In this document: in pieces, positions 21,193 to 54,469 of the stretch | Layout of the letters: the number at the start of each line of letters is the position of its first letter | Position numbering within the stretch: the first letter of the stretch is position 1 | DNA from: a virus | Virus record (IMG/VR): IMGVR_UViG_3300042865_000182 | Location: 1 to 64,000 of that record | Direction: 5' to 3' (one strand) | Length of the DNA: 64,000 nucleotides | Made by a program: the position numbers and the translations under genes | The notes under the pieces: model-generated | The model's input: the letters and a program-made list of their open reading frames with translations, nothing else | The model's database searches: none | Told to the model about the DNA's origin: nothing

Positions 21193-23943
21193 ATGAAGAT
21201 AATAAATGCCTTACAAGCAAAAGGAGGAGCAACAACAGAAAATAACAGAATGGGTAGCATCACCCAACCGTTACAGTTTATTCCTAAAAAAGAAAAAGAT
21301 GAAAAATGGGCAGCTTGGAATTTAGATTGGTTAGAGTGGCAAGGACTAAAACAAATCCGGAGAAATGCCAGAAGACTAATGAAAAATTACAAACTGGCAA
21401 AAGGTATCATAGATAAGTCTGATTATATAGTAGAAGAGAATAATGATTATAGAGATATTGTAGAAATATTAACTAAAGAAGATATCTCAGCATTAGAGTT
21501 AAAATTTTATCCAATTATACCAAATGTTATTAATGTTTTAGTAGCTGAGTTTGCAAAAAGATCTACTAAACTTACATATAGAGCAGTAGATGAATTTTCA
21601 TATAATGAATTGCTTGAGCAAAAAAGACAAATGGTTGAGGATGTTCTAATTCAAGATGCAAAACTAAAAGTTGCATCAGCTCTCATGGATAAAGGGCTTC
21701 AACCAGATTCAGAAGAGTTTCAACAAGAAACTTCTCCAGAAAAACTTAAATCACTTCCTGAGATTGAAATGTATTTTAGAAAAGATTACAGATCAATGGT
21801 AGAAGAATGGGCAACACATCAACATAAAGTTGATGTTGAAAGATTTAGAATGGATGAGCTTGAAGAAAGAGGTTTTAGAGATATGCTCATTACAGACCGT
21901 GAGTTCTGGCATTTCCGTATGATGGAGGATGATTATGAAGTAGAACTCTGGAATCCAGCTATTTCATTCTATCACAAGTCTCCAGATGCAAGATATATAT
22001 CACAAGCAAACTGGGCAGGTAAAACAGATATGATGACACCAGCCGATGTTATTGATAGATATGGATATTTAATGGATGAAGAACAACTTAGAGCTTTAGA
22101 AGCAGTTTATCCAATTAGATCTGCCGGTTATACTATTGGTGGTTTGCAAAATGATGGTTCTTTCTATGATGGAACCAAGTCTCATGATTGGAATACCAAT
22201 ATGCCATCTCTTGCATACAGACAATATACTACTGCTATGGGTGGTGCTGTATTAGAAGGCGGAGATATTATAACACAAATACTTTCTGAAGGAGAAGATT
22301 ATTATGATCAAGGTACTGCATATTTATTAAGAGTATCTACCATATATTGGAAGTCACAAAGGAAAATTGGACATTTAATTAATATAGATGATAATGGACA
22401 AGTAGAGATGGATATTGTAGATGAAGACTATGTATCTTCTACAAAACCAATTTATGACACTAGATTATTAAAAAATAAAACCAAGGATAACTTAGTTTAT
22501 GGAGAACATATAGATTGGATATGGATTAATGAAGTATGGGGTGGTGTAAAAATAGGACCAAATATTCCATCTTTCTGGGGTATGAATAATCCTGGAGGAT
22601 TTACTCCTATGTATATTGGTGTTGATAAACCTAAAATAGGACCATTAAGATTTCAATTTAAAGGTGACAATTCATTATATGGTTGCAAACTTCCTGTGGA
22701 GGGCGCAGTTTTTTCAGACAGAAATACCAAATCCACAGCACTTATTGACTTAATGAAGCCATACCAGATTGGTTATAATATAGTTAATAATCAGATAGCA
22801 GATATCTTAGTAGATGAGCTTGGTACTATAATCATGCTTGACCAGAACACTTTACCAAGACACTCATTAGGAGAAGATTGGGGTAAGGGTAACTATGCTA
22901 AGGCTTATGTAGCAATGAAAAATTTCCAGATGTTACCTCTAGATACATCTATTACAAATACTGAGAATGCATTAAACTTCCAACATTTCCAAAAATTAGA
23001 TCTATCTCAGACAGAGAGATTAATGTCTAGGATACAGTTAGCTAATCACTTTAAGCAACAAGCTTATGAAGTAATAGGTGTAACTCCACAAAGAATGGGA
23101 CAGCAGATTGCACAAATGACAGCAACAGGTATTGAACAAGCGGCAGCTGCATCATATGCTCAAACTGAAATGTTCTTTGTTCAACACTGTGATTACTTAA
23201 TGCCAAGAGTTCATCAAATGCGTACAGATCTAGCTCAGTATTATCATGCAACAAAACCATCAACTAGATTAAGTTATATAACTACTGCTGATGAAAAGGT
23301 AAACTTTGAAATAAATGGTACTGACCTTTTAATGAGGGATCTTAATATCTTCTGTAGTACAACTGCTAACCATAGAGCTGTTTTAGAGCAACTTAAACAA
23401 ATGGCTATGCAGAATAATACTACAGGAGCTAGTATCTATGATCTTGGTAAAATTGTTCAATCTGATTCTATTGCAGAACTTAACAATGCTCTTAAAGCTT
23501 CTGAACAAAAACAAGAACAACAAAAACAACAAGAACAACAACAACAACAACAAATGCAACAAGAACAACTTCAAAAACAACAAGAGATTGAGAAAATGAA
23601 GCTTGATGCTACTGCTGCAGAAAAAGAAAAAGATAGACAGACTGAGATACTTATAGCAGAAATTAGAGCTGCTGGTTATGGTTCAATGGCTGATGTTAAT
23701 AAAAATGAAATCTCTGACTATCAAGATGCTATGAGAGATATTAGACAAAGTGATCAATACATGGCTCAAAATCAACTTCAAAGAGATAAAGAAGCTACTA
23801 GAACTATGTTAGATAGAGATAAGAATGCAATTGAAAGAGAGAAGTTACAAGTACAAAGAGAGATAGCAGATAAGCAGTTACAAGTAGCTAGAGAGAATAA
23901 AAATAAATATGATAAAGGCGGTTCAGTAAAAAATAAAAAGTAG
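21193..23943 (+). CDS. Portal protein (crAss-like)
   Basis: 916 aa after TerL; YPIIPNVINVLVAE, WIWINEVWGGVKIG, CKLP, IGVTPQRMGQ motifs; long coiled-coil C-terminus. Confidence 0.85.
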   Translation: MKIINALQAKGGATTENNRMGSITQPLQFIPKKEKDEKWAAWNLDWLEWQGLKQIRRNARRLMKNYKLAKGIIDKSDYIVEENNDYRDIVEILTKEDISALELKFYPIIPNVINVLVAEFAKRSTKLTYRAVDEFSYNELLEQKRQMVEDVLIQDAKLKVASALMDKGLQPDSEEFQQETSPEKLKSLPEIEMYFRKDYRSMVEEWATHQHKVDVERFRMDELEERGFRDMLITDREFWHFRMMEDDYEVELWNPAISFYHKSPDARYISQANWAGKTDMMTPADVIDRYGYLMDEEQLRALEAVYPIRSAGYTIGGLQNDGSFYDGTKSHDWNTNMPSLAYRQYTTAMGGAVLEGGDIITQILSEGEDYYDQGTAYLLRVSTIYWKSQRKIGHLINIDDNGQVEMDIVDEDYVSSTKPIYDTRLLKNKTKDNLVYGEHIDWIWINEVWGGVKIGPNIPSFWGMNNPGGFTPMYIGVDKPKIGPLRFQFKGDNSLYGCKLPVEGAVFSDRNTKSTALIDLMKPYQIGYNIVNNQIADILVDELGTIIMLDQNTLPRHSLGEDWGKGNYAKAYVAMKNFQMLPLDTSITNTENALNFQHFQKLDLSQTERLMSRIQLANHFKQQAYEVIGVTPQRMGQQIAQMTATGIEQAAAASYAQTEMFFVQHCDYLMPRVHQMRTDLAQYYHATKPSTRLSYITTADEKVNFEINGTDLLMRDLNIFCSTTANHRAVLEQLKQMAMQNNTTGASIYDLGKIVQSDSIAELNNALKASEQKQEQQKQQEQQQQQQMQQEQLQKQQEIEKMKLDATAAEKEKDRQTEILIAEIRAAGYGSMADVNKNEISDYQDAMRDIRQSDQYMAQNQLQRDKEATRTMLDRDKNAIEREKLQVQREIADKQLQVARENKNKYDKGGSVKNKK
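23503..23586 (+). repeat. CAA-rich poly-Gln tract in the portal gene
   Basis: EQKQEQQKQQEQQQQQQMQQEQLQKQQE. Confidence 0.8.
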
Positions 23944-28587: not shown

Positions 28588-28589
28588 TT

Positions 28590-29009
28590 ATGGCAACAAT
28601 AAAAACAAAAAAACCAGTTAAAAAATTAGTTAAAGCTAAAGCAGGTATGGAAACAAAAGGACCTGGTGATAGATTAAGAAATTTATATAATAAAGCACTT
28701 GGAAGAAAAACATCTACTGTATCTGTTGATTATGAAGTAGATGGAAAAAATGTACCATTTACAGGAACTGTGACTGAAGGTAAACGTAAAGCAATTATGA
28801 ATGTTTCTAATCCAGAATATGGCTCAACCAAATCTGTAGACAGATTTAATAAAAGAGGTGCTTTAAAAAGCCAAAGGATTGTTGATAGAGACACTAGTGG
28901 TAAAAAAATTAAAGTAACAAAAAATAAGGTTGATAAATCAGGAAATATTCAGAGCTCAGTTCCATTCCAAAGAAAAAAAGGTGGAGCAGTAAAATCTAAA
29001 AAGAAATAG
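28590..29009 (+). CDS. Small Lys-rich protein ending RKKGGAVKSKKK
   Basis: ORF track. Confidence 0.75.
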   Translation: MATIKTKKPVKKLVKAKAGMETKGPGDRLRNLYNKALGRKTSTVSVDYEVDGKNVPFTGTVTEGKRKAIMNVSNPEYGSTKSVDRFNKRGALKSQRIVDRDTSGKKIKVTKNKVDKSGNIQSSVPFQRKKGGAVKSKKK

Positions 29010-29010
29010 T

Positions 29011-29253: not shown

Positions 29254-29255
29254 TC

Positions 29256-29781: not shown

Positions 29782-29793
29782 AATATATATAAA

Positions 29794-30189
29794 ATGAAAA
29801 CTTGTAAATACGGTTGTGGTAAAATGAAATCTGGTAGTAAGGTTGCTACTGATAAGAAAATGAAAACTGGTGGTAACACTGGTGGTTATGCTCCAGCTCA
29901 AAAAGGTGGTGATAATGTTAAGATGGGAATATATGGTATTCCTAATGCTGGTAGAACAGATTCATTAGGATTTAAAAAAGGTGGTTCAACTACATCTCGT
30001 GCCGTAAAAACTTCATGTAAAGGTGGTTTAGTTACAGATTTTGATGGTAAATGTGTAACAGAAAGAAAAATGAAAAGTGGTGGTCCATTAAAACCAGTAC
30101 CTGCAGGTAAAGTTGGCTTATCAAAATTACCTATTGCTGTAAGAAATAAAATGGGTTATGCTAAAAAAGGTGGTATTAAAAAAAGATAA
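29794..30189 (+). CDS. Small basic protein with multiple xKxGG motifs
   Basis: MKTGG, AQKGG, FKKGG, SCKGG, MKSGG, AKKGG. Confidence 0.75.
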   Translation: MKTCKYGCGKMKSGSKVATDKKMKTGGNTGGYAPAQKGGDNVKMGIYGIPNAGRTDSLGFKKGGSTTSRAVKTSCKGGLVTDFDGKCVTERKMKSGGPLKPVPAGKVGLSKLPIAVRNKMGYAKKGGIKKR

Positions 30190-30191
30190 TC

Positions 30192-30365: not shown

Positions 30366-30367
30366 CT

Positions 30368-30784
30368 ATGAAGAAGACTAATAAAGAAAATCCTATTACT
30401 ACATTTAGAAAAGCTAATGAAGCTAGACAAGCTGTAGTAAAGAAGTCTTTGAAGAAAGCTCAAGATGGTATTCAGATGAATTCAACAGACGGGACAAAAC
30501 CACCAGGACCCCCTTCAAATACAATAGGTGCTAACTTTGGTGTAGGTAACTTTAGTGGTGGAGTTCAAAGTAATTTGTCTGATGGTAGATTATCAAATAC
30601 AATGCTTAATGCAGCATACAATAATCCAAAAGGTTTTGGAGCAAATGTATCTTATTCACCTCAATCTAAACAAGTTAATGCAGGTCTTAATTATAATACT
30701 ACAGTAGGTAAAAATAAAATACCATTAAAATTAGGGATTACTTATAATAAAACAGGAGGTTCTGTAAAAAGAAAAAAGAAATAA
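30368..30784 (+). CDS. Basic protein with amphipathic beta-strand core
   Basis: ORF track; ends YNKTGGSVKRKKK. Confidence 0.75.
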   Translation: MKKTNKENPITTFRKANEARQAVVKKSLKKAQDGIQMNSTDGTKPPGPPSNTIGANFGVGNFSGGVQSNLSDGRLSNTMLNAAYNNPKGFGANVSYSPQSKQVNAGLNYNTTVGKNKIPLKLGITYNKTGGSVKRKKK

Positions 30785-40365: not shown

Positions 40366-41408
40366 TGGATTTTAATTATACTCTCCGTTACAGGCCTTTT
40401 GATCAACTCTTAGAAGATGTATCAATAGACATGAATACTTTGGCTCTTGAGAATATGATAGAGCCTCAGCAATTAATAAAAGTTGCTAAAAAGATAAATT
40501 ATGATCTAGGTCTTAGAATAAATCAAACAAGAGAAGTTATTCTTGAAGTTTGTCATAATAAAGTAAAACTACCTGATAACTTTTATACATTTAATTTTGC
40601 TTTTATATGTGGAGAGTATGAAGATCATGTTGGTTATGGCGGTATGTCTGGTGGTACTAACATTCAAGAAGTACCATACAAAGAAGCTCCATCCACAGTA
40701 GATCAGTGTGCACCACCTACAGTAAACTGTAGATCATGTAATGCTAACCCATGTAAACATACAGCAGCCTGTGATCTTAATTATCCTATAGTAGATCCAA
40801 TACCAACTGAGTATGATCCTAATAATCCTTATGGTAATACATGTGTACCACCAAGAGTATTCATGAACTGTAAAGGTGAGAAGTGGGAGCTAATCCAAAT
40901 ATTAAATACTGGGGCCACAAGAAAATATTCTAGACTTATTCCGCTAAGAATGAAAGCAAGTCAAGAAATAGAATGTGACTGTCCTAATCTATATTATGAT
41001 ACAGCAAATCAAGCTTGGATAAAAGATGGATTTTTATTTACAACATTTGAAACTGGTAAAGTATATCTTAATTATCAAGGAGCTATGGAAGATGAGGCTG
41101 GTAACTTACTTGTTCCAGATCATGATCTTCTCAATGATTATTATGAGTATGCAATAAAACAAAGACTACTTGAAAACTTATTTATGAATGGAGAAGATGT
41201 TTCTGCAAGACTACAACTTGTAGAACAAAGATTAAGGGCTGCAAGAAATCAAGCACTTAGTTTAGTAAATACTCCAAACTTTAAAGAACTAGAACAAATG
41301 TGGTGGACAAATAGAAAAGCTATGTATAATAAATATTATGACATGTTTAAAAGCTATTCTCCAAATAAAGCATTTTACGGTATTAATGGTGTATCTAGAG
41401 TATTATAA
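40365..41408 (+). CDS. Putative tail tubular/ring protein (P22 gp4-like position)
   Basis: VKLPDNF...FLFTTFETGKVYLNY....DE.G.LLVPD; directly precedes the stabilisation protein. Confidence 0.6.
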   Translation: MDFNYTLRYRPFDQLLEDVSIDMNTLALENMIEPQQLIKVAKKINYDLGLRINQTREVILEVCHNKVKLPDNFYTFNFAFICGEYEDHVGYGGMSGGTNIQEVPYKEAPSTVDQCAPPTVNCRSCNANPCKHTAACDLNYPIVDPIPTEYDPNNPYGNTCVPPRVFMNCKGEKWELIQILNTGATRKYSRLIPLRMKASQEIECDCPNLYYDTANQAWIKDGFLFTTFETGKVYLNYQGAMEDEAGNLLVPDHDLLNDYYEYAIKQRLLENLFMNGEDVSARLQLVEQRLRAARNQALSLVNTPNFKELEQMWWTNRKAMYNKYYDMFKSYSPNKAFYGINGVSRVL

Positions 41409-41410
41409 TC

Positions 41411-44400
41411 ATGGCAGAAGAAAAAGGAAATTTAAATACTAGTAAGACTAACACCTTTATAAAGGGTCTTCATAAAGATAGCGATCCTGCATTTATTCAG
41501 GAAGGAATGTGGACATATGCAAGAAATGCAGTTAATAACACTATTGAAGGTGATGTAGGAACAATATCTAATGAAGCATCAAATGCTCTGTGTGCAAAAG
41601 CAGGAGAAACAATACCGCCTACACATCCTTATAAATATATTATAGGTATGATTCATTTATTTACAGATAAATGGATTGTGTACACAGCATCTCATATTAA
41701 TGAAACATCTATTGCTCCTGGAGTATCTGAAATAGGTTTATATGAAGAACAGTCTTGTACATACAGACCAATAGTTCAAGATAAATGTTTGGGTTTTAGT
41801 AAATCTCATTTAATATCTGGAGCTGCTAGAGAAAAAGAAGATTGTACATGGCAAGTATATTGGGCTGATGGTTTTAATCCTGATAGATATCTGAATGTTG
41901 GTGATCCAAAAACTTGGCCAGGTCCAGATTATGTTTGGTTAGGTGGAGCAAATGTAAACTATTATTCTAACGGTACTGTTGTAGATTTTCTTTGGCCAGG
42001 TGTTCCTTGGGTTGAAAAAATTAAAAATATCGGTGCTTGTGAATTTACTAAATATGATAATATCTTAGATTGTGATAAAACTAGACTAGCAAGATTAATG
42101 AACACACCTTGTCTGAACTTAAGTCTTGGTGATGGATCTGGATCTTTAGAGAATGGTAGTTATTATGCAGTTATAGCATATACTATAAAAGGAGAAAAGA
42201 TATCAGACTATTTTGCAGCTAGTAATGTACAACCTGTTTATACAACTATTTCTGCACAAGGATCTTTACAATTAGCAGTTGAAGCTGATACAGAAAATTT
42301 TGATGAATTTCAACTTGTACTTGTTGCAAATATAAATGAAAATACTATAGCAAGAATTATTGGATACTATTCTACAAATACTAAAAACATATTTATAGAT
42401 CAGTATAAACCAAGTTTAGAGTCAATTGATATAACTCTTATACCTTTGCTAACTCCTGTTTTTGAGAAGTCAGATCAAATGACACAGCTCAATAGTTATC
42501 TTCTTAGAATTGGACCTACAACTAAATTTGATTTTAACTATCAACCATTAGCTAATTTAATTGAAGCTGAGTGGGTTTCAGTAGAATATCCGGCCGCATA
42601 TTATTTTAAAGGAGGCTCAAAGACTAATTACATGAGAGATGAGAATTATGCATTTTTCATAAGATGGGTGTATAACACAGGAGATAAGTCTGCTTCATAT
42701 CATATTCCAGGAAGAGCTCCTGAAAATTGGGGACCTGCACCAGGCATTCCTGAAAATGAACCTTATACTAATTCAGACAGTTTTCCAGGAGATGTTGATT
42801 TATTTCAAACTATAAATACTGCTTACCAAACTTCATTTGCTACAAGTATATTAGATGATGGTGGTAAAGTTATTGCATCAGGTAAAATGGGTTATTGGGA
42901 GTCTACGGAAAGATATCCAGATAATAGACCTAATATATGGAATTCAAGTTACTATGTATGGACAGGTAAATATAATAACCCTAGCACAAACTATGATCTT
43001 TGTGGTTTACCAATAAGACATCACAAGTTTCCTGAAAATGTATTATATAGTAACACTACAGGTCAATTAACAAATTCTACAGCCTCATATCATTTTATAA
43101 AAGATGTTGCAACAAATGCACTCTATATAAGGATGATGGCTGTTCAATTTAAAAATATTATATATCCAAAAGATAATGATGGTAATGATATTCCAGGAAT
43201 TGTTGGTTATGAAATTCTAAGAGGATCAAGAGATGGTAACAGAAGTATAATTGCCAAAGGGATGCTAAACAACTTTAGAACTTATAATAGAGTTGGTGTT
43301 CCCGGTAATACTAGAACAGGTCTTTATGCAAACTATCCTTATAATACCATTATTCCAATAGGTAATGATACAACTGGTCATGATCAATATTATAATGATC
43401 CATTTATAAAGTCTGTTGATACAAATAACAATGTATTAAATCAATCTGTACCCATTAACATAACAAGTTTTCATTCACCAGATACAAGCTTTAGAACACC
43501 TTACTTATCAGCAATAGAGTTAAAAATCTATGGTCACTTATCTGGGTTAGCCCTGCAAAGATTTATTGAACCACAAGGTCATCCTAAGTTTAAATTAATG
43601 ACTAATGATGCTTTATGGATTATTATTATAGCTGGTGTAATTGATGTATTACTTAGAACATCAGGTGAGAAAAAAATAAATTATCCACAAGGTAGTTTTA
43701 CTCAACAATTTCAATTACCTTTTGCAGGAGGTATATCCTCACCATTAGCTATTCCATTAAATGTAGTAGGTGCATCTGGAGCAGCTCTTGCAAATACTAC
43801 ATTCACAAGTTTATTTAATACATATGATGGTTTAGGTGGTTTTATTGTAGATGCTTTTGCTGGAGTAGATAATCTTGTTCCTTTGTTTAAAACACATGAT
43901 GCTTCAATGCTTTCTGCTGGTGGAACATATAATCCAATTAATTATGAAAAGTCTTTAACTGCATTTTCACAATTACCAACATGGACACAAGTATTATTAA
44001 ATGTTGTTGGTGGAGTTAGTCAAATTGCATTTTTCTTTTTAGAAGGAGCACTTGCAGCACAAGATTTATTATATGCAATTGGACCATATAGACAATATGC
44101 ATTACAACTTATAGGTCATGGTCTATATGATACATTTAATCCATTCACTATAACAGATACTAAAAGATTTAAAATTGCAGATGCATCATACATTTTTAAA
44201 AACATCTCATTTGAAATTGATGATTATAATGATACAATAACAGGTAATCCAACTCAAAAGTATACTATTAATAATTATAAAAGATCTCAGTTGTTAATGT
44301 TAAGAACTGAGAGAGCAAATATACCAACCACCGATGGTCCTAAGTTACTAGTTACAGGTGGTGTTGGTTTGGATCAATCACTTGGTAGCTTAGGTATGTT

Positions 44401-46804
44401 TGATGACTGGTTAGGTCCTGATGGTCCTAAGATCAATGAAAAGAAAAAAAGTATTGAATTTGAAACAGGTATTGCAAGTCATTATGGTGCTATGAAAATA
44501 GATAATGATGATCAATATGGCCAGTTAAAAACAATTACAGAATTTCCAATAACACCATGTGAGCAAAAGTTTGATTACAATAGTTTGCCTACTAATACAT
44601 TTACAGTACAAATATCATTAGTTCCACCAATCTATCAAAGTGTTACGCAAAAAGTTATAACTCAAACTCCAGTAATATTTGGAGGAGATACATATATAAC
44701 AAGATTTACAGAAAAGAATCCAATGTTCTTTTTCTATAATTGGTTATATACAGAACCAAATGGCTATGAGTATAACTACTTTAATAACCAAATGATTCCT
44801 GAACCTAGATTTTGGGCTAATAGTGAAAGGTATGATTTATCTCAATTACAAGTAACTAGTTTAGCTGCATGGGCTGCATTGTTTAATAACTCAACTACAG
44901 GTACTGGATTTTTACCAAATGATTATTTTAATTTAGATAATGAAAATTATGTAAGAAATAATGATACTATTCCTGCAGGTTATCCTGGATTTATATATGC
45001 AAAGAATTCATATTTCTATTTATCAGCATCTGGAGTAAGAGACTTTTTTGTAGAGTCTGATGTTATCAATGACTTTAGAGAAGTTGGTACATTTGATTAT
45101 GAAAAATGTTATAATCCATATAGATATACTGACTTAGAAACTATGTTCAGAATGGATAAGATAACTGCAACAGAGGGTAACTTTTATTTATATGACTATT
45201 CATTAAGTATTACAAGATTAACAAACAGATATACATCATTTGGATTTTTACAAAATGTATATTATGATCCTGAGGTTGCTGAGTTATGTTATACATATTA
45301 TCCTAATACAATTACTTATTCTTTACCAGTTTCACAAACATCTTCTACAGATAACTGGTTTATATTTTTACCACTAAATAGAAAAGATTTTGTTAGTCAA
45401 ATTAGTGGAGTTAAAAACTTTGCTAAAACTGGAGCTTTTGTTACATTTAAAAATGATAGTCCAATAGTATTTCAAGGTGTAGATACACTTGAAATGGATG
45501 GATCAGGAACTAAGGTTATAATTGGAGATGCTAGTTTATTTGCAAGAGAGCCTCAAAATCTTGTGGTAGCTGATAAACCATACATGTATGGATCTTCTCA
45601 AGGAAGGCTATCTGTTATATCTACACCTGCTGGACTTTATTATATATCTCAAGATCAGGGTAAAGTTTTTGCATATGGTGATGGACTTAAAGAAATTTCC
45701 CAAGCTGGTATGAAATGGTGGTTTGATTATTTCTTACCTAGTAAGCTTCTTGAAGATTTCCCTGATTATCCATATGCTGATAATCCTGTAGCTGGTGTAG
45801 GAACACAGGCTGTGTTTGATAATTATAATTCTGTACTTTACTTTTGTAAAAAAGATTATAAATTAAAAGAATTTGGTCCAGATGGAGAACCTCTTGCAGG
45901 TAGGGTAGTTAATGTTAATACAAGTAAAGATAGTTATTTTAATTACTATCCTTATGTAAACGGTGTTATATCAGCAACACCACTTAAAGTTTCACTTGGT
46001 GATTCTAGAATTTTTGAAGATGCTTCTTGGACAGTAAGTTATGATCCTAAATCTCAGTTCTGGATTTCATTCCATGACTGGCACCCGGATCTTGTTATGC
46101 CAACTAAAGATAGTTTTATAACTACTAAAAGAAATCAGTTTTACAAGCATGGTGCAAGTTGTAATGACTACTGTAATTTTTATGGAGTACAGTACCCATT
46201 TGAAATTGAATTTCCAATTACAACCGGACAAAGTGTTACAACAGTAAAAAGTATTGAATATGTACTTGAATGCTATAGAAGAGAACAAAGATATTGTACT
46301 GATCAATTTCATATATTAGATTATAACTTTGATAAATTAGTTATACACAATACAGAACAAATATCAGGGTATTTAAATCTTAATGTGTTCCCTAAGAATA
46401 ATATAGCATTGTCTTTATTATATCCACAGCTAAATGTTAATAATAGTTCATTTGATATCTTGTTCTCTAAAGAAGAAAACAAGTATAGAATAAATCAGTT
46501 CTGGGACATAACAAAAGACCGTGGAGAATTTCCTAATGGTTCAGGTTATCCACCACAAGGACCTCTTATTCCAGGTACTACAACTTTATTAGGAAACTAT
46601 CCTGAAAATATGTTGTGGATCACTGAAGCTAATGGTTATAAAAAAGCTATTAATCCTCAAGCTGTAGATTATAATAAATCTCTTCTACAAAGAAAAAAAT
46701 TCCGTCACATGGTTAACTTTATGTATCTTAGTAAAACTAATTCAAGAGACACTAATATGATACTCAAGTTATTCAATAGTAAAAATCAATATTCTTTAAG
46801 ATAA
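41411..46804 (+). CDS. Tail stabilisation / muzzle protein (P22 gp10-like position), 1797 aa
   Basis: N-terminal FIKGLHKD......YARNA, YMRDENYAFFI, C-terminal WTVSYD....WISFHDW; synteny. Confidence 0.75.
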   Translation: MAEEKGNLNTSKTNTFIKGLHKDSDPAFIQEGMWTYARNAVNNTIEGDVGTISNEASNALCAKAGETIPPTHPYKYIIGMIHLFTDKWIVYTASHINETSIAPGVSEIGLYEEQSCTYRPIVQDKCLGFSKSHLISGAAREKEDCTWQVYWADGFNPDRYLNVGDPKTWPGPDYVWLGGANVNYYSNGTVVDFLWPGVPWVEKIKNIGACEFTKYDNILDCDKTRLARLMNTPCLNLSLGDGSGSLENGSYYAVIAYTIKGEKISDYFAASNVQPVYTTISAQGSLQLAVEADTENFDEFQLVLVANINENTIARIIGYYSTNTKNIFIDQYKPSLESIDITLIPLLTPVFEKSDQMTQLNSYLLRIGPTTKFDFNYQPLANLIEAEWVSVEYPAAYYFKGGSKTNYMRDENYAFFIRWVYNTGDKSASYHIPGRAPENWGPAPGIPENEPYTNSDSFPGDVDLFQTINTAYQTSFATSILDDGGKVIASGKMGYWESTERYPDNRPNIWNSSYYVWTGKYNNPSTNYDLCGLPIRHHKFPENVLYSNTTGQLTNSTASYHFIKDVATNALYIRMMAVQFKNIIYPKDNDGNDIPGIVGYEILRGSRDGNRSIIAKGMLNNFRTYNRVGVPGNTRTGLYANYPYNTIIPIGNDTTGHDQYYNDPFIKSVDTNNNVLNQSVPINITSFHSPDTSFRTPYLSAIELKIYGHLSGLALQRFIEPQGHPKFKLMTNDALWIIIIAGVIDVLLRTSGEKKINYPQGSFTQQFQLPFAGGISSPLAIPLNVVGASGAALANTTFTSLFNTYDGLGGFIVDAFAGVDNLVPLFKTHDASMLSAGGTYNPINYEKSLTAFSQLPTWTQVLLNVVGGVSQIAFFFLEGALAAQDLLYAIGPYRQYALQLIGHGLYDTFNPFTITDTKRFKIADASYIFKNISFEIDDYNDTITGNPTQKYTINNYKRSQLLMLRTERANIPTTDGPKLLVTGGVGLDQSLGSLGMFDDWLGPDGPKINEKKKSIEFETGIASHYGAMKIDNDDQYGQLKTITEFPITPCEQKFDYNSLPTNTFTVQISLVPPIYQSVTQKVITQTPVIFGGDTYITRFTEKNPMFFFYNWLYTEPNGYEYNYFNNQMIPEPRFWANSERYDLSQLQVTSLAAWAALFNNSTTGTGFLPNDYFNLDNENYVRNNDTIPAGYPGFIYAKNSYFYLSASGVRDFFVESDVINDFREVGTFDYEKCYNPYRYTDLETMFRMDKITATEGNFYLYDYSLSITRLTNRYTSFGFLQNVYYDPEVAELCYTYYPNTITYSLPVSQTSSTDNWFIFLPLNRKDFVSQISGVKNFAKTGAFVTFKNDSPIVFQGVDTLEMDGSGTKVIIGDASLFAREPQNLVVADKPYMYGSSQGRLSVISTPAGLYYISQDQGKVFAYGDGLKEISQAGMKWWFDYFLPSKLLEDFPDYPYADNPVAGVGTQAVFDNYNSVLYFCKKDYKLKEFGPDGEPLAGRVVNVNTSKDSYFNYYPYVNGVISATPLKVSLGDSRIFEDASWTVSYDPKSQFWISFHDWHPDLVMPTKDSFITTKRNQFYKHGASCNDYCNFYGVQYPFEIEFPITTGQSVTTVKSIEYVLECYRREQRYCTDQFHILDYNFDKLVIHNTEQISGYLNLNVFPKNNIALSLLYPQLNVNNSSFDILFSKEENKYRINQFWDITKDRGEFPNGSGYPPQGPLIPGTTTLLGNYPENMLWITEANGYKKAINPQAVDYNKSLLQRKKFRHMVNFMYLSKTNSRDTNMILKLFNSKNQYSLR

Positions 46805-48321
46805 TGACTAATTTTAAAAAAGGTGGTCCATTACAGAATAGTAATATATTTGCTACCAATAGATTATTTGTAAAAAATCCACTGTTTAAAAAAAGAAAAA
46901 AGAAAAGAGCCCCTGGAGTTTATAATCCAACAGCTAAGTTTAGATATGATGAAGGAGGACCTATATCATTTGATTATGATGATACACTGAGCACAGATAG
47001 AGGATTGGATATAGCCCAGAACATATCTAATAAGGATAAGTATATTATATCTGCTAGAGATACTGTTACACCCGAAATGATTGATAGAGCTTTGGCTGTT
47101 GGCATAAGCCCTGGTAAAATATTTGCTACCGGTTCAGATAAAGCTAAGATAGCTAAAGTAAAAGAACTAGGTGCTAAGCATGTTGATAATAAATCTAGTG
47201 TAGTTAAAGCACTTGGTAAACAAGGACAACAATTTAAAAAAGGTGGTATCCCCAAAGATATCTCTATACCACAGTTAAATCAGTTTGTAGAAGGAGGTGC
47301 ACCTGGTGACTTAGAAAAAATATTAAAAGACTTAGATGCAAAACTTGCTAATAATGAGATTACACAAAAACAATATGAGTATTTAAAAAACAAAGCAATT
47401 GACTATTATAATATCCAAAATAAATTAAATTTTGCAAAAAAACAATTAATAAGCAATGAAATATCTGGTGATAAATTTCAAGAAACATATGATGCATTAA
47501 AAAAAGACTATGGAGAAAAATACAATAAAGAGGGTATTACTTGTGGGGTAAATATGAAAAATTGTCCAAAAGATGAAGAACTTGAAAATTTATATCCTAC
47601 TATTACTCAACAAGTTGTAACTGAAACTCCTGTAGTTAGTAATGAAGTTCCTATTATTAATAATGAAATACCTGTAATTAGTAATGAAGTTTTAACAGAA
47701 CCAGAGACAGTTGAAACAGTAGAAGAAAAAATAAAAAGACCTGAATTAGAAGTACCAAGTATTGCTCCATACAATTTTCCAGGAGCAACACAACATACAA
47801 AAAAGAAAAAATATTTAGATTTTAGACTAAATCAAAGATATAATAAAACTTCACCAGTAGTAATTCAAGAAAAAATAGTAAGTAGAAAAGATGATCCTTT
47901 ATTAAGATTTATTAGTGGTTATGACAGAGAAAAAGGTACTCCTAAATTATATAAGTCACATAAAGATTGGAGTGAAAGATATCATGATGCTATAAGGCAA
48001 ATTCAGGAAGATCCTGAAAATGCAGAAAATGTAAGGTTTCCAGGATTTCGTGGTTCACCTCTTGCAAGTTGGAAAGACTATAAAGCAAGAAGAGAATATA
48101 AAAAAGATTGGAAAGATTATATTCAAAATGAAGTGCCTCAAATTATAGAAAGAAATAAACAAGCATTAGAAGATTACCAAAATCAATTGCAACAACAAAA
48201 AAATGGTGGATCAACAGATGATTATATAGAAGTAGATATACCAAAAGAACAAATACAATGGTACATAGACCAAGGATACAGAGTAGAGCCAGTAAGTAAA
48301 CTTAAAAAGTTTATTGGTTAA
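46804..48321 (+). CDS. Putative internal virion (cargo) protein with HAD-like domain
   Basis: ISFDYDDTL (DxDxT), IISAR, K, HVDN; segments separated by xxGG motifs. Confidence 0.6.
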   Translation: MTNFKKGGPLQNSNIFATNRLFVKNPLFKKRKKKRAPGVYNPTAKFRYDEGGPISFDYDDTLSTDRGLDIAQNISNKDKYIISARDTVTPEMIDRALAVGISPGKIFATGSDKAKIAKVKELGAKHVDNKSSVVKALGKQGQQFKKGGIPKDISIPQLNQFVEGGAPGDLEKILKDLDAKLANNEITQKQYEYLKNKAIDYYNIQNKLNFAKKQLISNEISGDKFQETYDALKKDYGEKYNKEGITCGVNMKNCPKDEELENLYPTITQQVVTETPVVSNEVPIINNEIPVISNEVLTEPETVETVEEKIKRPELEVPSIAPYNFPGATQHTKKKKYLDFRLNQRYNKTSPVVIQEKIVSRKDDPLLRFISGYDREKGTPKLYKSHKDWSERYHDAIRQIQEDPENAENVRFPGFRGSPLASWKDYKARREYKKDWKDYIQNEVPQIIERNKQALEDYQNQLQQQKNGGSTDDYIEVDIPKEQIQWYIDQGYRVEPVSKLKKFIG

Positions 48322-48356
48322 TTTAAAATTTAGTATATTTAATTATAAGCAATAGC

Positions 48357-51300
48357 ATGAAAGTTAGAATATATAAAACACCGGACAGTAAAGGAAAGCT
48401 TGTAAAAGCCAAGAAAGGTATGTCTGTTAATATAAATGAGGAGATTAAAAGAAAGATTGCAGAAGGTAAAGAGCCTGAGATCATTATATATGAATTAGCA
48501 GAATTTGGTTTATCAAGACCAGAAGCACAAAGAAAAGTAAATAGATATTATGATCTTCTTGGGGATGATGAGTATGCTGAAGATGAAGTAGTTGCACCTT
48601 ATGATGATACAGTTGAAGATGAAGTAGTACAAACTCCAGAAGAAGATGAACCAGATAATGCTGCTATTTATGATTACTATGGTGGTGATAATCAAGGACT
48701 TGATGTAGTTAATGATGGTGCTGATGATGAAGATGAAGAAGATGATATGGCAAGATATGGTGGACAGTATGCAGAAGGTGGACAGTTTGCTCCAGGAAGT
48801 ATTATACCTGAACCAAAGAAACCATATTTTATAGGAATGGATGCTGAACCTTATGATAATGCTTATGCCTTTGGTGGAAACACATATGGTTTTGGTGGAC
48901 CTGGTGATGGTGATAAAAGACGTAGTTTTTATGATACAGCTGTAACTGACTACAAACAATGGTTAACCAATCCAGCAGCATGGCAAGAAGATCCTGAAAT
49001 GTTGGCTCCTGATGGAAAAACATTAAATCTATGTTTAGATTGTATGGACATGGATTGGAATAATGAGCAAGATATAAGAGATGCCCATAGATTAATTGAA
49101 GAAGGTTACTCAACTGGGACACATAGAAATCAAGAACTATTTGATGCAGGTCTAAAAAAATATGGTTTACAAACTCCTGTATGGTCATCTAAAAAACAAA
49201 TTAGTGAAAATAAATTTGGTGGTTTAACCAAAAACCAATATGTTAATAAAAGAATCAAAGAACTTAGAAAAGCTGCACAAGGTGATGAAGTTCAAAATAA
49301 TGAAACTAATATATCTCCAAGAGGCACAATAGATAGTCCTTCTGGATTCACTAGTCCAGAAAAAAACTTAGCTTCAATTATAAAGCAAACCGGTAATAAT
49401 GCTTTGTTAAAACAACAAGCTGAAAATGAATATCAACAATATCAAAATTCAACTATGGGTCAAGATTTTAATGGTAAGTTTCTATTTGGTGGTAGAAACA
49501 GAAAAATAAAAAGAGCTAACAGAGCAATGTTTGGAACACCAATAGCACTACCAGGTGTAGACGTTAATTATGAATTTGGACCATTAGGTGGTTTAAGAAA
49601 AGCTGAAGCTAAATGGGATTTAGATGCTATTGGAGATTTGGCTAAATTTTTACCAGGAGCTGTTGGTATGTTTCCAGGTATGATGGGTGGATTTAATCCA
49701 GCTATGATGCAATATAAAAAAGTAAGTTATCCTGCACAGATTAGAAAAAAAGTTATTTCTGAAATTAATAAAGAAGCTTTAAATGATGTAGCTAAACAAA
49801 ATCCTAATTCTGAAGCTGCTCAAAAAAGTAATAATCCTATACCAACTACAGTAGAATCTAGCACACAACTTAATCCAAAATCATATTTAAATTATGGTAC
49901 CGGTCCTGGATCTGGAATGGGTAGAATGCATTTGGATGATATGGATTTATATGAACAAGAACACGGTGGTTTTGTAAATACAGAAACAATGGATCCAAAT
50001 ATGCTTGCTAAGTTTATTTATGGTGGTGATGAATATGCTTATGGTGGTGATGTGATACCAAAAGCTGCACCGGGTATGATGGTTGGTAATACACAAAACC
50101 CATTAGCTTTACAGAATTATATTGCTAACCATTTAAAGTATCATAATTATGGACAGAGACAGAAACAAGCTGTTCAACAACCTAATACTACTCAGGGTGT
50201 AAATCCATTTATGCAATACATGCAAATGATGCAAGGTCAACAGGGTAATCCATATATGGGAAGTCAAATGATGTTTAATCCATATATGAATAATGCTTTT
50301 GGTAATCAACAATTTTGGACAGGTAGACCACAAAGATTAGGTTTTGGTCTTACTAGAGACTTTAATTACACTAATGCTTTTTCTCCTGTTAATTGGCAAG
50401 TACCTGAAGGGACAAAAAAAATTACAGAAAAAGTTTATAAAGATAGAGGTAAATGGTATAATCCTTTTGATACAAAAAGAATTAGAGAATGGTATGCAGA
50501 TGGAACAGAAGGTGAAGCGAATGACTTGATAAACAAACAAGGATCTGGTACTAATATTAAAACAGATACTACACCAAAACAATCACAAGCTTCTAAATAT
50601 GGATACAGTGATGAAGATTGGGCTAATTTAACATGGGATCAACAGACAGCTATAATGAATGCTGCAGATAGTTCTCCAGATAAAATGTCCACAAGAGCTG
50701 CTTCACAAATCCCTACTTCAGTGTCTGGATTAGCTCCTGAATCATTATCGGCAAGTGGTGTTAATCAATCTAAAAGTGCAACTGGAGTGGGTGCTAAATT
50801 ATCTGGATCTGGCATATCATCAATATATGAACCAGAAGTAACAACTCCTAATTCATATGTATCATCACCAGCTACACAACAAACAACTACTCAAGGTAGT
50901 GGTAGCATGTATCCGGCTGGTCAAAGATCTACTTCTGGTATTTCATCTGTTTATGAACCAGAAGAAACTGTACCTAATTCATACACAGGCTCTTCACAAA
51001 CTTCAAGCCGTCCTCAACAATATAACACATTATATCCGGCAGGTACAAGGTCAACTACTGGAATTGATTCAACATATGAAGTTGATGCTAATGTTTCTAA
51101 TGCAAATACAGTATCTAAACCAGTTGCACCAGCAGCATCTGTTATTGCAAAACCAATGACAGATCCTAAGTATATACCAACAGCTGAAGATTTTCAATAT
51201 GATTCAGAAGGAATACCTGCACCTAATACTAATGTTAATAGTAATCAGAACTATGATGAAAATTTCTTAGAAGAATTACCAATGGCATACGGTGGTTATA

Positions 51301-51824
51301 TGGCTTATGGAGGTTATATACCTGAGTATATGGCTTATGGTGGATATATGCCAATGGCTAAATCAGGAATCACTGCAGGTAAACCAGAATTTGAAGACCC
51401 TAATCTTATTGGTAGAGTAGTAGAACAATCTGCATATACATTTAAACCTGGACAAATGGCAACAGACTTATTTAGCAGTCCATCTAGTTTAACAGGTTTA
51501 ACTACTAATATATTAAATGCTAGAGATCAAGCTAAAAAAATGGATCAAGCTGCTCAAAGAAATAGAACATTTGATGCTGCAACTGCTAACACAGGTCAAT
51601 CAGGATTTGGTTCTGCTGAAAGAAAAGGATCAGACTTAATGGCAAGCGGTACTTATACTCAATATGGAACTACACCTGGACAACAAGGCTATGAAGGTGG
51701 TCTATATGGTAAAAAAGGTGGCTCTATGAATACACAATATGCTAAAGGTAAAGTTTACAGTTTAACCATGGAACAAATAAAAGCTATTGAAGCTGCCGGA
51801 GGTAAAATAGAATATATAAAATAA
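48357..51824 (+). CDS. Putative internal virion (cargo) protein, largely low-complexity
   Basis: 1155 aa; many xxxGG motifs; internal repeats. Confidence 0.65.
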   Translation: MKVRIYKTPDSKGKLVKAKKGMSVNINEEIKRKIAEGKEPEIIIYELAEFGLSRPEAQRKVNRYYDLLGDDEYAEDEVVAPYDDTVEDEVVQTPEEDEPDNAAIYDYYGGDNQGLDVVNDGADDEDEEDDMARYGGQYAEGGQFAPGSIIPEPKKPYFIGMDAEPYDNAYAFGGNTYGFGGPGDGDKRRSFYDTAVTDYKQWLTNPAAWQEDPEMLAPDGKTLNLCLDCMDMDWNNEQDIRDAHRLIEEGYSTGTHRNQELFDAGLKKYGLQTPVWSSKKQISENKFGGLTKNQYVNKRIKELRKAAQGDEVQNNETNISPRGTIDSPSGFTSPEKNLASIIKQTGNNALLKQQAENEYQQYQNSTMGQDFNGKFLFGGRNRKIKRANRAMFGTPIALPGVDVNYEFGPLGGLRKAEAKWDLDAIGDLAKFLPGAVGMFPGMMGGFNPAMMQYKKVSYPAQIRKKVISEINKEALNDVAKQNPNSEAAQKSNNPIPTTVESSTQLNPKSYLNYGTGPGSGMGRMHLDDMDLYEQEHGGFVNTETMDPNMLAKFIYGGDEYAYGGDVIPKAAPGMMVGNTQNPLALQNYIANHLKYHNYGQRQKQAVQQPNTTQGVNPFMQYMQMMQGQQGNPYMGSQMMFNPYMNNAFGNQQFWTGRPQRLGFGLTRDFNYTNAFSPVNWQVPEGTKKITEKVYKDRGKWYNPFDTKRIREWYADGTEGEANDLINKQGSGTNIKTDTTPKQSQASKYGYSDEDWANLTWDQQTAIMNAADSSPDKMSTRAASQIPTSVSGLAPESLSASGVNQSKSATGVGAKLSGSGISSIYEPEVTTPNSYVSSPATQQTTTQGSGSMYPAGQRSTSGISSVYEPEETVPNSYTGSSQTSSRPQQYNTLYPAGTRSTTGIDSTYEVDANVSNANTVSKPVAPAASVIAKPMTDPKYIPTAEDFQYDSEGIPAPNTNVNSNQNYDENFLEELPMAYGGYMAYGGYIPEYMAYGGYMPMAKSGITAGKPEFEDPNLIGRVVEQSAYTFKPGQMATDLFSSPSSLTGLTTNILNARDQAKKMDQAAQRNRTFDAATANTGQSGFGSAERKGSDLMASGTYTQYGTTPGQQGYEGGLYGKKGGSMNTQYAKGKVYSLTMEQIKAIEAAGGKIEYIK
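50808..51080 (+). repeat. Three imperfect intragenic repeats of about 40 aa
   Basis: SGISSIYEPEVTTPNSY / YPAGQRSTSGISSVYEPEETVPNSY / YPAGTRSTTGIDSTYE. Confidence 0.75.
51282..51347 (+). repeat. MAYGGY x3 peptide repeat
   Basis: atggcatacggtggttat atggcttatggaggttat ... atggcttatggtggatat. Confidence 0.85.
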
Positions 51825-51829
51825 TCAAC

Positions 51830-54469
51830 ATGAGATACAGAGTTAAAATAACAGAAGCTCCTGAATTATTCAAAGTAAAAATAACTCAGCCTCCAAAAGC
51901 AAAAACAGGTTATCAAATTGAGGGATCATTGGCTAATGATCTTTCTGCATTTGGTGGTGGTAATCTAAAACTTACAGAACCTAAAGCTGTAGCTACTAAA
52001 ACTATTACTAAGGTGCCTAGAGATCAAGCTAACTTAGAAGCTGAAGGTGGAGAAACTGTATTAACATTTGATCCATCTGGATATCCTTTATTTTATGAAA
52101 TAAAAGGTCCTAGACATAGTGCTAATGGTGTTCCATTAAATCTTCCGGATGATAGTTTTATATTTAGTGATACTAAAGAAATGATAATTAAGGATCCTGT
52201 TATTCTTAAAATGTTTAATAAATCACCTAAAAAAGGATATACTCCAGCAGATTTATCTAAACAATTTTTATCATTAAATAAATATAGAATGACTATGCAG
52301 GATCCTACTTCAGATAAAGTAGAGATAAAAACTGCAGAGTTAATGATAAAGAAAAGTATTATTAAACTAGGAGCATTAGCATTAGCTCAGGAAGCTAAGA
52401 AAGGATTCCCACAAGGTATTCCAGCTGTAGCTAAACAATATATGGAAGCTAATGGTATTACTGAACAAGATATACTACCAGATCAACCAGAACAAGAATC
52501 ACCAGCACAAGCAGGTCAAGCTATTGATATGGGTCAGGCTATGGCAGAAGGAGCACCTCAACAAGCTATTGAAGCTAATGAACCTCCAATGATGCCAGAT
52601 GGTTCTCCTGTTGCAATGCCTGAAGAACAAATGATGCAACAACAACCCCCAATGCAACCAGGTATGAAACATGGTGGAATGTTAAGACACGCTAATAAAG
52701 GTTTACAAGTTGCATTAAATAAAATCACAGTTAGTGTAAAAAATGCTCTTGATCAAGGAAAAGAAATGGAAGATATCCTTCTTGAGCTTATACAAAGTAA
52801 TGTAACCCCAGAAGATCTAATTACAGTATTGGGTAATCTTGCTATTCCAGAAATGAAGGCAAAAGAAATGGTTACAGATGCACTTAATACCTTACAAGAA
52901 CAAGCTGCTCAACAAAGACAAATGATGGCTCAGCAACAAGCAGCTCAAATGGGACAACAACCAGGAATGCAAGCTCCACAACAAGGACAACCTTCTCCAG
53001 AGCAAATGATGGCTATGGCTCAACAGATGCCACAAGAACAAATGCAACAAGCTCCTATGGCTATGTATGGAATGTCTATGGGTGGTTATAATATGCCTTT
53101 CTATAACAATCCTAATGAAATGGCTTATGGTGGTTTTTTAAGAGAAGCAGGTAATGGTGAAATTGTAAAAGGTAAAAAAGGTGACGTATCTGCAACAAAA
53201 AAAAGTAAAGCTGAATTTGAATCTTATAAAGGAACTCCAACTACTACAGCTAGTGGTAAAAAAGCTAAATACTTATTTGAATCTAACCCTGAAAGAGTTA
53301 GAAAAGATCAAGCGATAACTAATGCTGGAAATCCCGCAAACTTTAATAGAGGTGCTTGGGAAAAAACTTTATGTGATGAAATAAAAGGCGGATCAACAGT
53401 TGATGATATTTTAAAAAGACACTATAGCGGTCAAGAAGCTTATAGAGCGCAAGTACTAAGCATGTTTGCTGATTGTTTCAAAGAAGCTGAAGAAAAGTTT
53501 AAAGAAAGAGAAGAAGCAATTTACTTAGATGAAGAACCTGTTACAACAACTACTACTGAAGAAGAAGAATGTGTATGTACTGATCCTATGACAGGTCAAG
53601 AAACTGTATTTCCTAAAAATGCTGATGGTACTTGTACTCCATGTGAAGCATATCAAATGGAAGAAAGCCAAATGCAGATGCCTGGGCAAATGAAACCAAG
53701 AGGATTACAGTATCTTCCTGAAGATAAGTTAAATCTTGGCATTGCCTTAGCTCAAAGATATGAAAATCTTCCTCCTATAATGGGTAAAGCTCCTGGTGTT
53801 AGAGAACAAGCTGAAAGAGTTGATTATATGGGTCAAGCTGAATTAGCAAAAGGTATGACACAAGGTACTATAAATGCAATTCAAAAAATGGCTGCTAATA
53901 ATCCTGGCGGAGCTTTAGCTGCTATGTTTGCAGCACAAAGAGGATCTCAAGGAGACATAATTAACTTAGCATCTCAAACAAATGCACAGAATGCAGATAG
54001 AGCCACAGCTTTAAATAAAGCAAATACACAACATCAGTGGAATCAATTACTATTAGATAAAGATGCATCTGATATATATAACCAAAGACAAGCAACTTGG
54101 GCAAGTAATAAAGCACAAGATTTTAGTAATTACTGGGCTAATGTAGGTGATAAATTTGCTAAGATGAAAGGTAATGCTAGAACACTTGCTGCTGTTAATG
54201 AAGCTCAAGGTATGAAATGGAATATTGATCCTATTACAGGTGAAGAGTATTATGTTAATGCAAATAATAAAGTTATTACACCAGAGAAACCTGCTGAAGA
54301 TTTTGCAACAAAAATGGCAAGATTTAAAGCTATGGGTATTACTGATAATTCAGATGTATTAAGAGCAATGGATCTTGAAAGAAAAATGAATGTAACTAAG
54401 TTTGGTGGTATAGCATATAAAAATGGAGGTTATGTTTATGCTGATATTTTATATCCATTTATACTGTGA
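51830..54469 (+). CDS. Putative internal virion (cargo) protein with EAEGGE/GPRH domain
   Basis: ANLEAEGGETV...KGPRHSANGVPL...FIFSD; Gln/Met/Pro-rich linkers. Confidence 0.65.
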   Translation: MRYRVKITEAPELFKVKITQPPKAKTGYQIEGSLANDLSAFGGGNLKLTEPKAVATKTITKVPRDQANLEAEGGETVLTFDPSGYPLFYEIKGPRHSANGVPLNLPDDSFIFSDTKEMIIKDPVILKMFNKSPKKGYTPADLSKQFLSLNKYRMTMQDPTSDKVEIKTAELMIKKSIIKLGALALAQEAKKGFPQGIPAVAKQYMEANGITEQDILPDQPEQESPAQAGQAIDMGQAMAEGAPQQAIEANEPPMMPDGSPVAMPEEQMMQQQPPMQPGMKHGGMLRHANKGLQVALNKITVSVKNALDQGKEMEDILLELIQSNVTPEDLITVLGNLAIPEMKAKEMVTDALNTLQEQAAQQRQMMAQQQAAQMGQQPGMQAPQQGQPSPEQMMAMAQQMPQEQMQQAPMAMYGMSMGGYNMPFYNNPNEMAYGGFLREAGNGEIVKGKKGDVSATKKSKAEFESYKGTPTTTASGKKAKYLFESNPERVRKDQAITNAGNPANFNRGAWEKTLCDEIKGGSTVDDILKRHYSGQEAYRAQVLSMFADCFKEAEEKFKEREEAIYLDEEPVTTTTTEEEECVCTDPMTGQETVFPKNADGTCTPCEAYQMEESQMQMPGQMKPRGLQYLPEDKLNLGIALAQRYENLPPIMGKAPGVREQAERVDYMGQAELAKGMTQGTINAIQKMAANNPGGALAAMFAAQRGSQGDIINLASQTNAQNADRATALNKANTQHQWNQLLLDKDASDIYNQRQATWASNKAQDFSNYWANVGDKFAKMKGNARTLAAVNEAQGMKWNIDPITGEEYYVNANNKVITPEKPAEDFATKMARFKAMGITDNSDVLRAMDLERKMNVTKFGGIAYKNGGYVYADILYPFIL

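Follow-up and report, generated by a model that had tools for sequence, protein, structure and literature searches.

GG-X processing by clan CE proteases is known from adenovirus, whose protease recognizes (M/I/L)XGG↓X, and from African swine fever virus (ASFV), whose pS273R recognizes GG↓X. The prohead-protease motifs or capsid-targeting sequences of phages are L/I-x-E in T4 and S/A/G-x-E in giant phages of the phiKZ/SPN3US type, whilst double-glycine leaders pair a C39 peptidase with a single N-terminal leader of 15–30 residues. Polyvalent proteins of phages and conjugative elements, reportedly described by Iyer, Burroughs, Anand, de Souza and Aravind in J Bacteriol in 2017, are said to be long proteins with unrelated, exchangeable effector domains that are thought to enter with the DNA, and typically to contain a peptidase of their own (e.g. 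a zincin-like MPTase) by which they are predicted to be processed. We know of no account of them in which one uniform junction peptide marks all module borders. Here we analyzed such a peptide, a recurrent Gly-Gly motif of the form [FYM]xxGG, in the products of three consecutive open reading frames (ORFs) of a virus. The ORFs lie in the first 64 kb (positions 1 to 64,000, hereafter the window) of a 107,394-bp IMG/VR virus record (IMGVR_UViG_3300042865_000182), which is estimated to be ~90% complete. Judged by its gene content, the source is a crAss-like phage; no other viruses are as abundant in the human gut as phages of this group, which also occur commonly in lakes and seas.

The three ORFs, which we call cargo A, B and C, follow the gene for the muzzle protein (41411..46804, + strand; Pfam crAss_MUZ, E = 1.2e-26), which fixes their position. 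Cargo A (P0001; 46804..48321, +; 505 amino acids, aa) lies directly 3′ of the muzzle gene, followed by cargo B (P0002; 48357..51824, +; 1155 aa) and cargo C (P0003; 51830..54469, +; 879 aa). At the corresponding position of crAss001, the muzzle gene gp44 is followed by cargo genes gp45 (C1) and gp46 (C2) and then by the RNA-polymerase-associated giants (Bayfield et al. 2023, PMC10172136). How the ~5 MDa of protein is stored and pushed through the tail has been open since that structure was published in 2023 (PMC10172136). We consider it most likely that P0001–P0003 are packed into the particle and injected. Searched against Pfam (E ≤ 0.01) and PHROG, they matched no family.

All of the peptides that a preliminary description of this DNA had listed were found in the ORFs to which it had assigned them. 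The sites, hereafter seams, are FKKGG at 46813, YDEGG at 46945, FKKGG at 47233, FVEGG at 47284 and QKNGG at 48196 in cargo A (all +), and SAFGG at 51944, MKHGG at 52664, MSMGG at 53072, MAYGG at 53120, TKFGG at 54395 and YKNGG at 54416 in cargo C (all +). Cargo B holds 18 GG sites, nine of which fit [FYM]xxGG, and these include the tandem seams FIYGG-DE-YAYGG (50013..50048, +) and the triple cluster MAYGGY-MAYGGY-IPEY-MAYGGY (51282..51344, +). GG dipeptides were mildly enriched in cargo A, B and C (5, 18 and 10 observed against 1.8, 12.1 and 5.1 expected). Counts of the full motif were 4, 9 and 4 for ORFs 46804, 48357 and 51830, against 0.15, 1.61 and 0.60 expected from composition-preserving shuffles (17 against 2.4 in total), and for each ORF the observed count was reached in 0/500 shuffles. 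The enrichment over background that the description had implied was thus found, with the other 105 ORFs at chance level: Phe, Tyr or Met stood at position −3 of GG in 17/32 sites of the three cargo ORFs and in 15/132 sites of the others (background 11.7%; binomial p = 1.3e-8, Fisher’s exact test p = 1.2e-6). These data, with the conservation described below, establish the Gly-Gly motif as a genuine, strongly selected short linear motif at the N-terminal module borders of modular cargo proteins. The wider proposal of a general code for the sorting of virion cargo did not hold. The muzzle protein has one [FYM]xxGG (1.26 expected), and the 54535 ORF and the three giant ORFs that follow it have 0–1 copies each (0.8–0.9 expected). 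A sorting code is too broad a term because the giant cargo proteins of RNA-polymerase type are without the motif, and an instance in the portal protein was not conserved (see below).

Relatives were collected as 80 phage loci linked through the portal gene (L008–L087). A search for related loci using P0002 alone returned none, and no match was given by megablast of the cargo region against phages or by tblastn of P0003 against cultured phages. Homologues numbered 85 for P0002 and 1164 for P0003. BLAST identity among the cargo B homologues drops to ~30% over 13–20% of the length, and in each homologue 4–14 motif copies occupy corresponding positions. The motifs that recur are YAEGGQF, YKFGGLT, FLFGGRN, FIYGGDE-YAYGGDV and the MAYGGY cluster, together with ..KKGGS.. 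immediately ahead of the tail. The tandem seams at 50013 are present in nearly all 85 homologues, where G556 and G557 are invariant, and tandem clusters with seams 6–10 residues apart are kept across the family. In alignments A1 (74 sequences, cargo B) and A2 (65 sequences) the invariant columns are largely the seam glycines. Among sets of 85 and 120 homologues, it is the GG columns that do not vary, even where the stretches between them diverge or have been exchanged.

A logo of 1393 GG sites showed Y/F/M at −3 in 50%, A at −2 in 31%, Y/F at −1 in 35% (Y alone 26%), Y at +1 in 15% and V/I/M at +2 in 39%, and the consensus of the junction peptide is [Y/F/M]-[A/K]-x-G-G-x-[V/I/M/L]. Across the 80 loci, the number of motifs per 1000 residues was 3.5 for cargo A, 4.7 for cargo B and 3.9 for cargo C, against 0.20 and 0.14 for the next two genes and 1.2 for the ORF at the muzzle position. 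The Gly codons of the seams match genome-wide Gly usage and the three MAYGGY copies of cargo B are spelled with different synonymous codons, and therefore selection acts on the peptide, not on the DNA. The comparison shows that the junction peptide is selected at the protein level and is the most conserved feature of these families. Because thousands of cargo proteins that cannot otherwise be aligned have this one peptide in common, it offers a sequence handle for cargo genes.

To place the seams in the proteins, P0002 and P0003 were folded as single chains in AlphaFold2 with homologue alignments. Residues with a predicted local distance difference test (pLDDT) score below 50 made up 71% of P0002 and 33% of P0003, and small ordered islands were scattered along both chains. 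The preliminary description had placed the motifs at boundaries between segments of different composition, and the models agreed with this, as all seams lay in linker of pLDDT < 50 and several stood 0–12 residues before an ordered module. In P0002, the last residues of NKFGG (289) and FLFGG (379) coincide with the exact ends of the disordered segments 273–289 and 365–378, and GKKGG stands 4 residues ahead of the C-terminal tail module. In P0003, MKHGG and MAYGG stand 5 and 7 residues ahead of the ordered modules 289–374 and 443–568. The idea that the seams form β-hairpins, with aromatic-GG-aromatic as a two-residue turn, was rejected, as AlphaFold gave coil with pLDDT < 50 at every seam. Low-complexity sequence was also seen. 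Residues ~600–650 of P0002 form a Gln/Met/Asn/Pro-rich stretch, similar Gln/Met/Pro-rich stretches occupy residues 230–280 and 360–415 of P0003, and residues ~812–915 of P0002 (~50790–51100) hold three degenerate Ser/Thr-rich repeats of ~40 residues (..SGISSIYEPEVTTPNSY.., ..SGISSVYEPEETVPNSY.. and ..TGIDSTYEVDANVSN..).

An optional CxxC module of cargo B (P0002 residues 180–285; 48894..49211, +) is bounded by YGFGG and NKFGG. Immediately past YGFGG, homologue coverage falls from 54 to 17, and at NKFGG it climbs from 44 to 74; most cargo B relatives lack the module and have a single YKFGG there instead. In the protein P0072 the CxxC module stands in a different context, and two domains, DUF5872 and DUF5754, lie between seams; elsewhere these two come up in papers about giant viruses and polinton-like viruses. 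DUF5872 is also found as a free-standing gene in the present phage (28249–28587, E = 2.5e-12). The shortest cargo A homologue in the 80 loci has 175 aa and the longest 2106 aa, and cargo A relatives carry N-acetylmuramoyl-L-alanine amidase (Amidase_2), SET or GNAT modules. The BLAST similarity of cargo A proteins broke off ≤5 aa from a seam in 28% of cases, whereas 4% of random positions lie that close (a large effect, in high-scoring segment pairs that are not independent). These comparisons show that seams are where relatives gain, lose and swap modules. The junction peptide can be used to delimit payload modules, among them amidase, SET, GNAT and small DNA-binding-like domains. In the module of P0001 between YDEGG and FKKGG (residues ~51–146; 46954–47241), the opening sequence ..ISFDYDDTLS.. 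resembles HAD-phosphatase motif I (DxDxT); Pfam did not confirm HAD in this module, where its sole match was a weak one to ADH_zinc_N (E = 0.004).

Like the polyvalent proteins, the cargo proteins combine several unrelated exchangeable domains in variable architecture, as seen in cargo A, in the optional module of cargo B and in P0072. In our reading the three ORFs encode modular (“polyvalent”) cargo or ejection proteins, each probably a mostly disordered chain with small folded or helical modules.

That modules come and go at disordered seams is also what would be expected if the seams were passive, either as a flexible Gly-Gly hinge with no partner or as a recombination seam for the in-frame exchange of modules. 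However, if the hinge were passive, hundreds of diverged proteins would not have kept F/Y/M at a fixed distance, together with a hydrophobic residue at +2, and seams also lie near natural N-termini, where nothing is linked. For recombination there is no conservation at the DNA level to drive it, because the seam codons vary synonymously, following the Gly usage of the genome, and only 5–7 codons are involved; a DNA-level recombination signal was ruled out by this synonymous variation. We consider a passive or recombinational role improbable.

A second possibility is that the cargo proteins are polyproteins, with seams cut by a phage or host protease, at head maturation or after ejection. Such processing would set the modules free as individual proteins and remove short leaders from the N-termini and tails from the C-termini. 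The arrangement of the seams would suit it. One uniform peptide occupies the disordered linker of each module border, irrespective of the module; seams are found 4–16 residues from many natural N-termini and just before C-terminal tails; DUF5872 is flanked by GG in P0072, yet free-standing at 28249–28587; and the peptidoglycan amidase, SET and GNAT payload modules of relatives would act in different compartments. There is also a likeness to the adenovirus and ASFV sites in the Gly-Gly with an upstream hydrophobic residue at the borders of virion core components, and in the short terminal pieces set off by sites. Cut seams would give tailed phages an equivalent of the GG-X processing of adenovirus and ASFV. 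However, the hydrophobic residue of the clan CE consensus is at P4, whereas F/Y/M of the present motif would be P5 if the cut fell after GG, so that one more residue separates it from GG than at adenain or PLpro sites. The present phage, which is uncultured, is moreover tailed and of the HK97 lineage. The conserved tandem seams also speak against cutting, which would free peptides of 6–10 residues.

The search for a protease gave further points against processing. Six-frame searches of the whole genome (~90% complete) found no match at E ≤ 1 to C39, C48/Ulp1, C5/adenain, JAB, S77 or S78, so that the genome differs from adenovirus and ASFV in having no detected C5/C48 gene. The cargo proteins, the structural ORFs, the giants, five long cargo A relatives and the 85 cargo B homologues yielded no Pfam peptidase domain, and in this lack of an embedded peptidase P0001–P0003 and these relatives differ from the polyvalent proteins. 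The prohead-protease systems of T4 and phiKZ/SPN3US-type phages are similar in that one short motif is common to many internal head and ejection proteins, but their motif is another one, the present genome is without S77/S78 and its giant RNA-polymerase cargo is without the present motif. Double-glycine leaders differ in that the present motif is internal and in many copies, and there was no Peptidase_C39 match.

One peptidase-like gene was found, encoding a zincin-like DUF2201_N+VWA protein (92795–93979) outside the window in the replication arm. The zincin-VWA region (91595–93979, minus strand; DUF2201_N/DUF2201, PhageMetallopep) adjoins a MoxR-like AAA+ ATPase. The presence of the gene in 3/4 motif-rich relatives tested and its absence from crAss001 are in favor of processing. 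Against this, tblastn found homologues in N4-like phages and AR9/PBS1 jumbo phages. An RNA polymerase is packaged in the virions of these phages, as it is in those of crAss-like phages. The zincin-VWA protein was therefore rejected as the seam protease, being common to N4-like and AR9-type phages and not specific to phages that bear seams.

In crAss001, gp45 allowed a joint to be inspected in the virion. It shares with the present cargo proteins the position of its gene immediately 3′ of the muzzle gene, a basic box at the N-terminus with the first seam behind it (..KIKRRGKMPPNIFDTGG) and a lysine-rich GG tail. Its joints are FDTGG (residues 17–21), SAYGG (206–210), FAEGG (260–264), KAFGG (329–333), NAFGG (424–428) and FAYGG (559–563). 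Two segments of gp45 were resolved in the virion, 214–245 in the tail barrel and 425–552 on the portal wing, and the structure paper does not describe the motif (PMC10172136). Both segments are inter-seam modules, with SAYGG before 214–245 and FAYGG after 425–552. The second starts at A425, so that the bond after G428 of NAFGG is intact in the virion, which is evidence against processing at this joint.

There were also differences between gp45 and the present proteins. It has only 3 canonical [FYM]xxGG (1.3 expected) and no detectable sequence, profile or fold match to P0001–P0003. An apparent match by eye between the N-terminal domain of P0003 and gp45 425–552 was not borne out: hhalign of A1 and A2 against gp45 gave a probability <1%, profile A2 had no match among PDB sequences, Foldseek found no match to the portal-binding domain fold (E ≤ 0.001), and VIA-align gave generic long-helix matches only, the 879-residue multi-domain model being unsuited to it.

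For the crAss001 virion gel of 2018 we also re-fingerprinted the matrix-assisted laser desorption/ionization (MALDI) peak lists (PMC6235969, supplementary file 14), which are informative for bands 1–10. In bands 1–9 this recovered gp44, gp47/gp50, gp49, portal gp20, gp22, gp26, gp25 and gp23, with 12 peaks matched to portal gp20 in the ~100-kDa band. For gp45 (91 kDa), 12 ordered segments and as many as 12 copies per virion have been reported, a number similar to that of the portal, but it matched 0–4 peaks per band, no more than shuffled sequences did, and none above chance in bands of at least ~58 kDa. Therefore full-length 91-kDa gp45 is not evident on the gel, though the 12-copy portal is visible, which is in favor of processing; if gp45 were cut, its 12 chains would not need to thread through the portal. 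As evidence for cutting the gel is weak, consisting of MALDI fingerprints of bands 1–10 in which co-migration and ion suppression are possible, and those tryptic peptides of gp45 that span a seam measure 28 to >60 residues, for which reason digestion with trypsin cannot decide between cut and uncut seams. Neither gp45 nor gp46 was significant in bands 1–10. Bands 1–2 (>300 kDa) contained gp44 (7 and 13 peaks) and some gp34 matches, suggesting muzzle complexes that resist sodium dodecyl sulfate.

The preliminary description had read the motif as a capsid-targeting signal or maturation-protease site. Of this, a real, selected peptide that marks module borders, and the layout of a polyprotein, stood; the protease side was not supported, with no known Gly-Gly or prohead protease family encoded and the NAFGG joint of crAss001 uncut. 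Processing in general we hold to be less likely than not, though a real alternative, and we rate no differently its specific form, in which seams are cleavage sites of payload polyproteins at [F/Y/M]-x-x-G-G and the enzyme is a protease of an unrecognised family or a host enzyme.

The interpretation that we tentatively prefer, whilst giving it slightly less than an even chance, is that the seams are uncut docking or hinge junction peptides of modular cargo proteins that are stored and ejected as a thread. The peptide would precede each module, with joints staying uncut in the virion, and the seams would act as a flexible, aromatic-anchored docking or hinge peptide that is bound many times by one common partner in the particle or tail channel. 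The cargo would then be stored as a partly unfolded thread, fed module by module through portal and tail and refolded in the host, whilst the N-terminal basic box and the shared C-terminal tail of cargo A and B (see below) would complete this junction grammar. The conserved tandem seams, 6–10 residues apart, fit multivalent binding better than cutting.

A number of points weigh against such an uncut junction. AlphaFold gives no structure for the seams, and the seam partner remains putative. The sole uncut joint is degenerate (Asn at −3) and belongs to a phage without detectable similarity to P0001–P0003. In the gel re-analysis, gp45 was not seen above chance in the bands of at least ~58 kDa, where the equimolar portal gave its 12 peaks. 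The motif 4–16 residues from many natural N-termini and just before C-terminal tails would look alike if pro-peptides were removed there, and modules such as DUF5872 occur as free-standing genes in the present phage. The junction peptide lets the thread and the processed polyprotein be tested against each other directly. We found no published account of the motif or of cargo proteolysis in Crassvirales, in a literature whose coverage was incomplete, and the motif is apparently undescribed so far.

The ends of the cargo proteins have features of their own. A basic box, M-K-(K)-V-R-I-K-K-x-P, opens cargo B, cargo C and many cargo A proteins. At the other end, the C-terminal tail module of cargo A (..GGSTDDYIEVDIPKEQIQWYIDQGYRVEP..; 48214..48318, +) is of a type common to cargo A and B in related loci, and that of cargo B, which follows GKKGG (51723..51821, +), is conserved in relatives and was modeled as strand-helix-strand with pLDDT 72–77 over residues 1127–1155. 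The pattern shared by the cargo A and B tails is ..GG..(L/M)T..EI..[YF][IL]..G[GY]x[IV]E[EY][IL], for which AlphaFold gave strand-helix-strand. The basic box and shared tail are better candidates for a packaging or anchoring signal than the internal seams are. The box of cargo B and C is a conserved basic strand (MKVRIKKxP), and the tail of one cargo protein may also bind the N-terminal box of the next protein in gene order, which would form a non-covalent A-B-C chain. In locus L026, cargo B is without the tail and the box of cargo C is degenerate; L012 and L014 do not fit the chain idea.

The preliminary description had extended the motif to small basic proteins and to the portal. Three small basic proteins are encoded downstream of the portal gene: one ending ..RKKGGAVKSKKK (28590..29009, +), whose tail type recurs in relatives, a Gly-rich one with seven GG sites ending ..AKKGGIKKR (29794..30189, +), and one ending ..NKTGGSVKRKKK (30368..30784, +). 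In ORF 29794, three of the seven GG sites had F/Y/M at −3 (0.40 expected, p = 0.004 by shuffles). A GG with a lysine-rich tail in the last 12 residues was found in four proteins (the portal, 28590, 29794 and 30368), against 0.22 expected. Across the 80 loci, small proteins downstream of the portal repeatedly end ..[KR][KR]GG[SAT][VI]KxKKK, making this tail a conserved feature. The portal motif at the C-terminus, YDKGGSVKNKK (23908..23943, +), is present in this phage as described, but it is kept in only ~12/80 relatives (77–96% identity), most of which end e.g. YDSKSSDKKKK, and the portal GG instance is incidental.

Seven small lysine-rich ORFs lie between the capsid and tail genes (28249–30784), three of which end ..KKGG[SA][VI]KxKKK, and ORF 29509–29781 of this cluster is DUF6321 (E = 4e-25). 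The proteins of the cluster may be internal DNA-binding proteins.

Lysine-rich proteins with GG tails would also suit ubiquitin-like chemistry, in which a JAB-type peptidase would uncover GG and an E1-like enzyme would activate it for conjugation to lysine-rich virion proteins. In crAss001, gp76 is a ThiF-family (E1-like) protein (E = 8e-16) and adjoins gp77, a weak Prok-JAB match (20.4 bits, cut-off 25); on sequence alone the two look like the gene pair of a ubiquitin-like system. In the present genome, however, ThiF and JAB had no match in six frames at E ≤ 1. The motif-rich genome thus lacks the pair and crAss001, which is motif-poor, has it, and the pairing is therefore the reverse of what this idea needs. 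The scheme was rejected as contradicted for the present genome, and we regard ubiquitin-like chemistry at the seams as very improbable.

The window has a GC content of ~33%, and the remainder of it shows the layout around the cargo genes. The terminase large subunit gene (TerL, 18980–21187) is followed by the portal gene (21193–23943; PHROG portal, E = 4e-97), the major capsid protein gene (25325–26941; Pfam Crass_capsid) and the genes for tail ring proteins 2 and 1 (39703–41408; CrAss_Ring_1/2). This order, continued by crAss_MUZ and the three cargo ORFs, is the layout of crAss001 gp44–gp46. Downstream of cargo C lie the 1207-aa ORF (54535) and then the three giant ORFs of 2472, 3415 and 2774 aa. 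A 170-aa ORF within the structural block (31492–32004) matched DUF5856 (E = 1e-13) and phrog_858, annotated as “starvation-inducible transcriptional regulator” (E = 4e-18).

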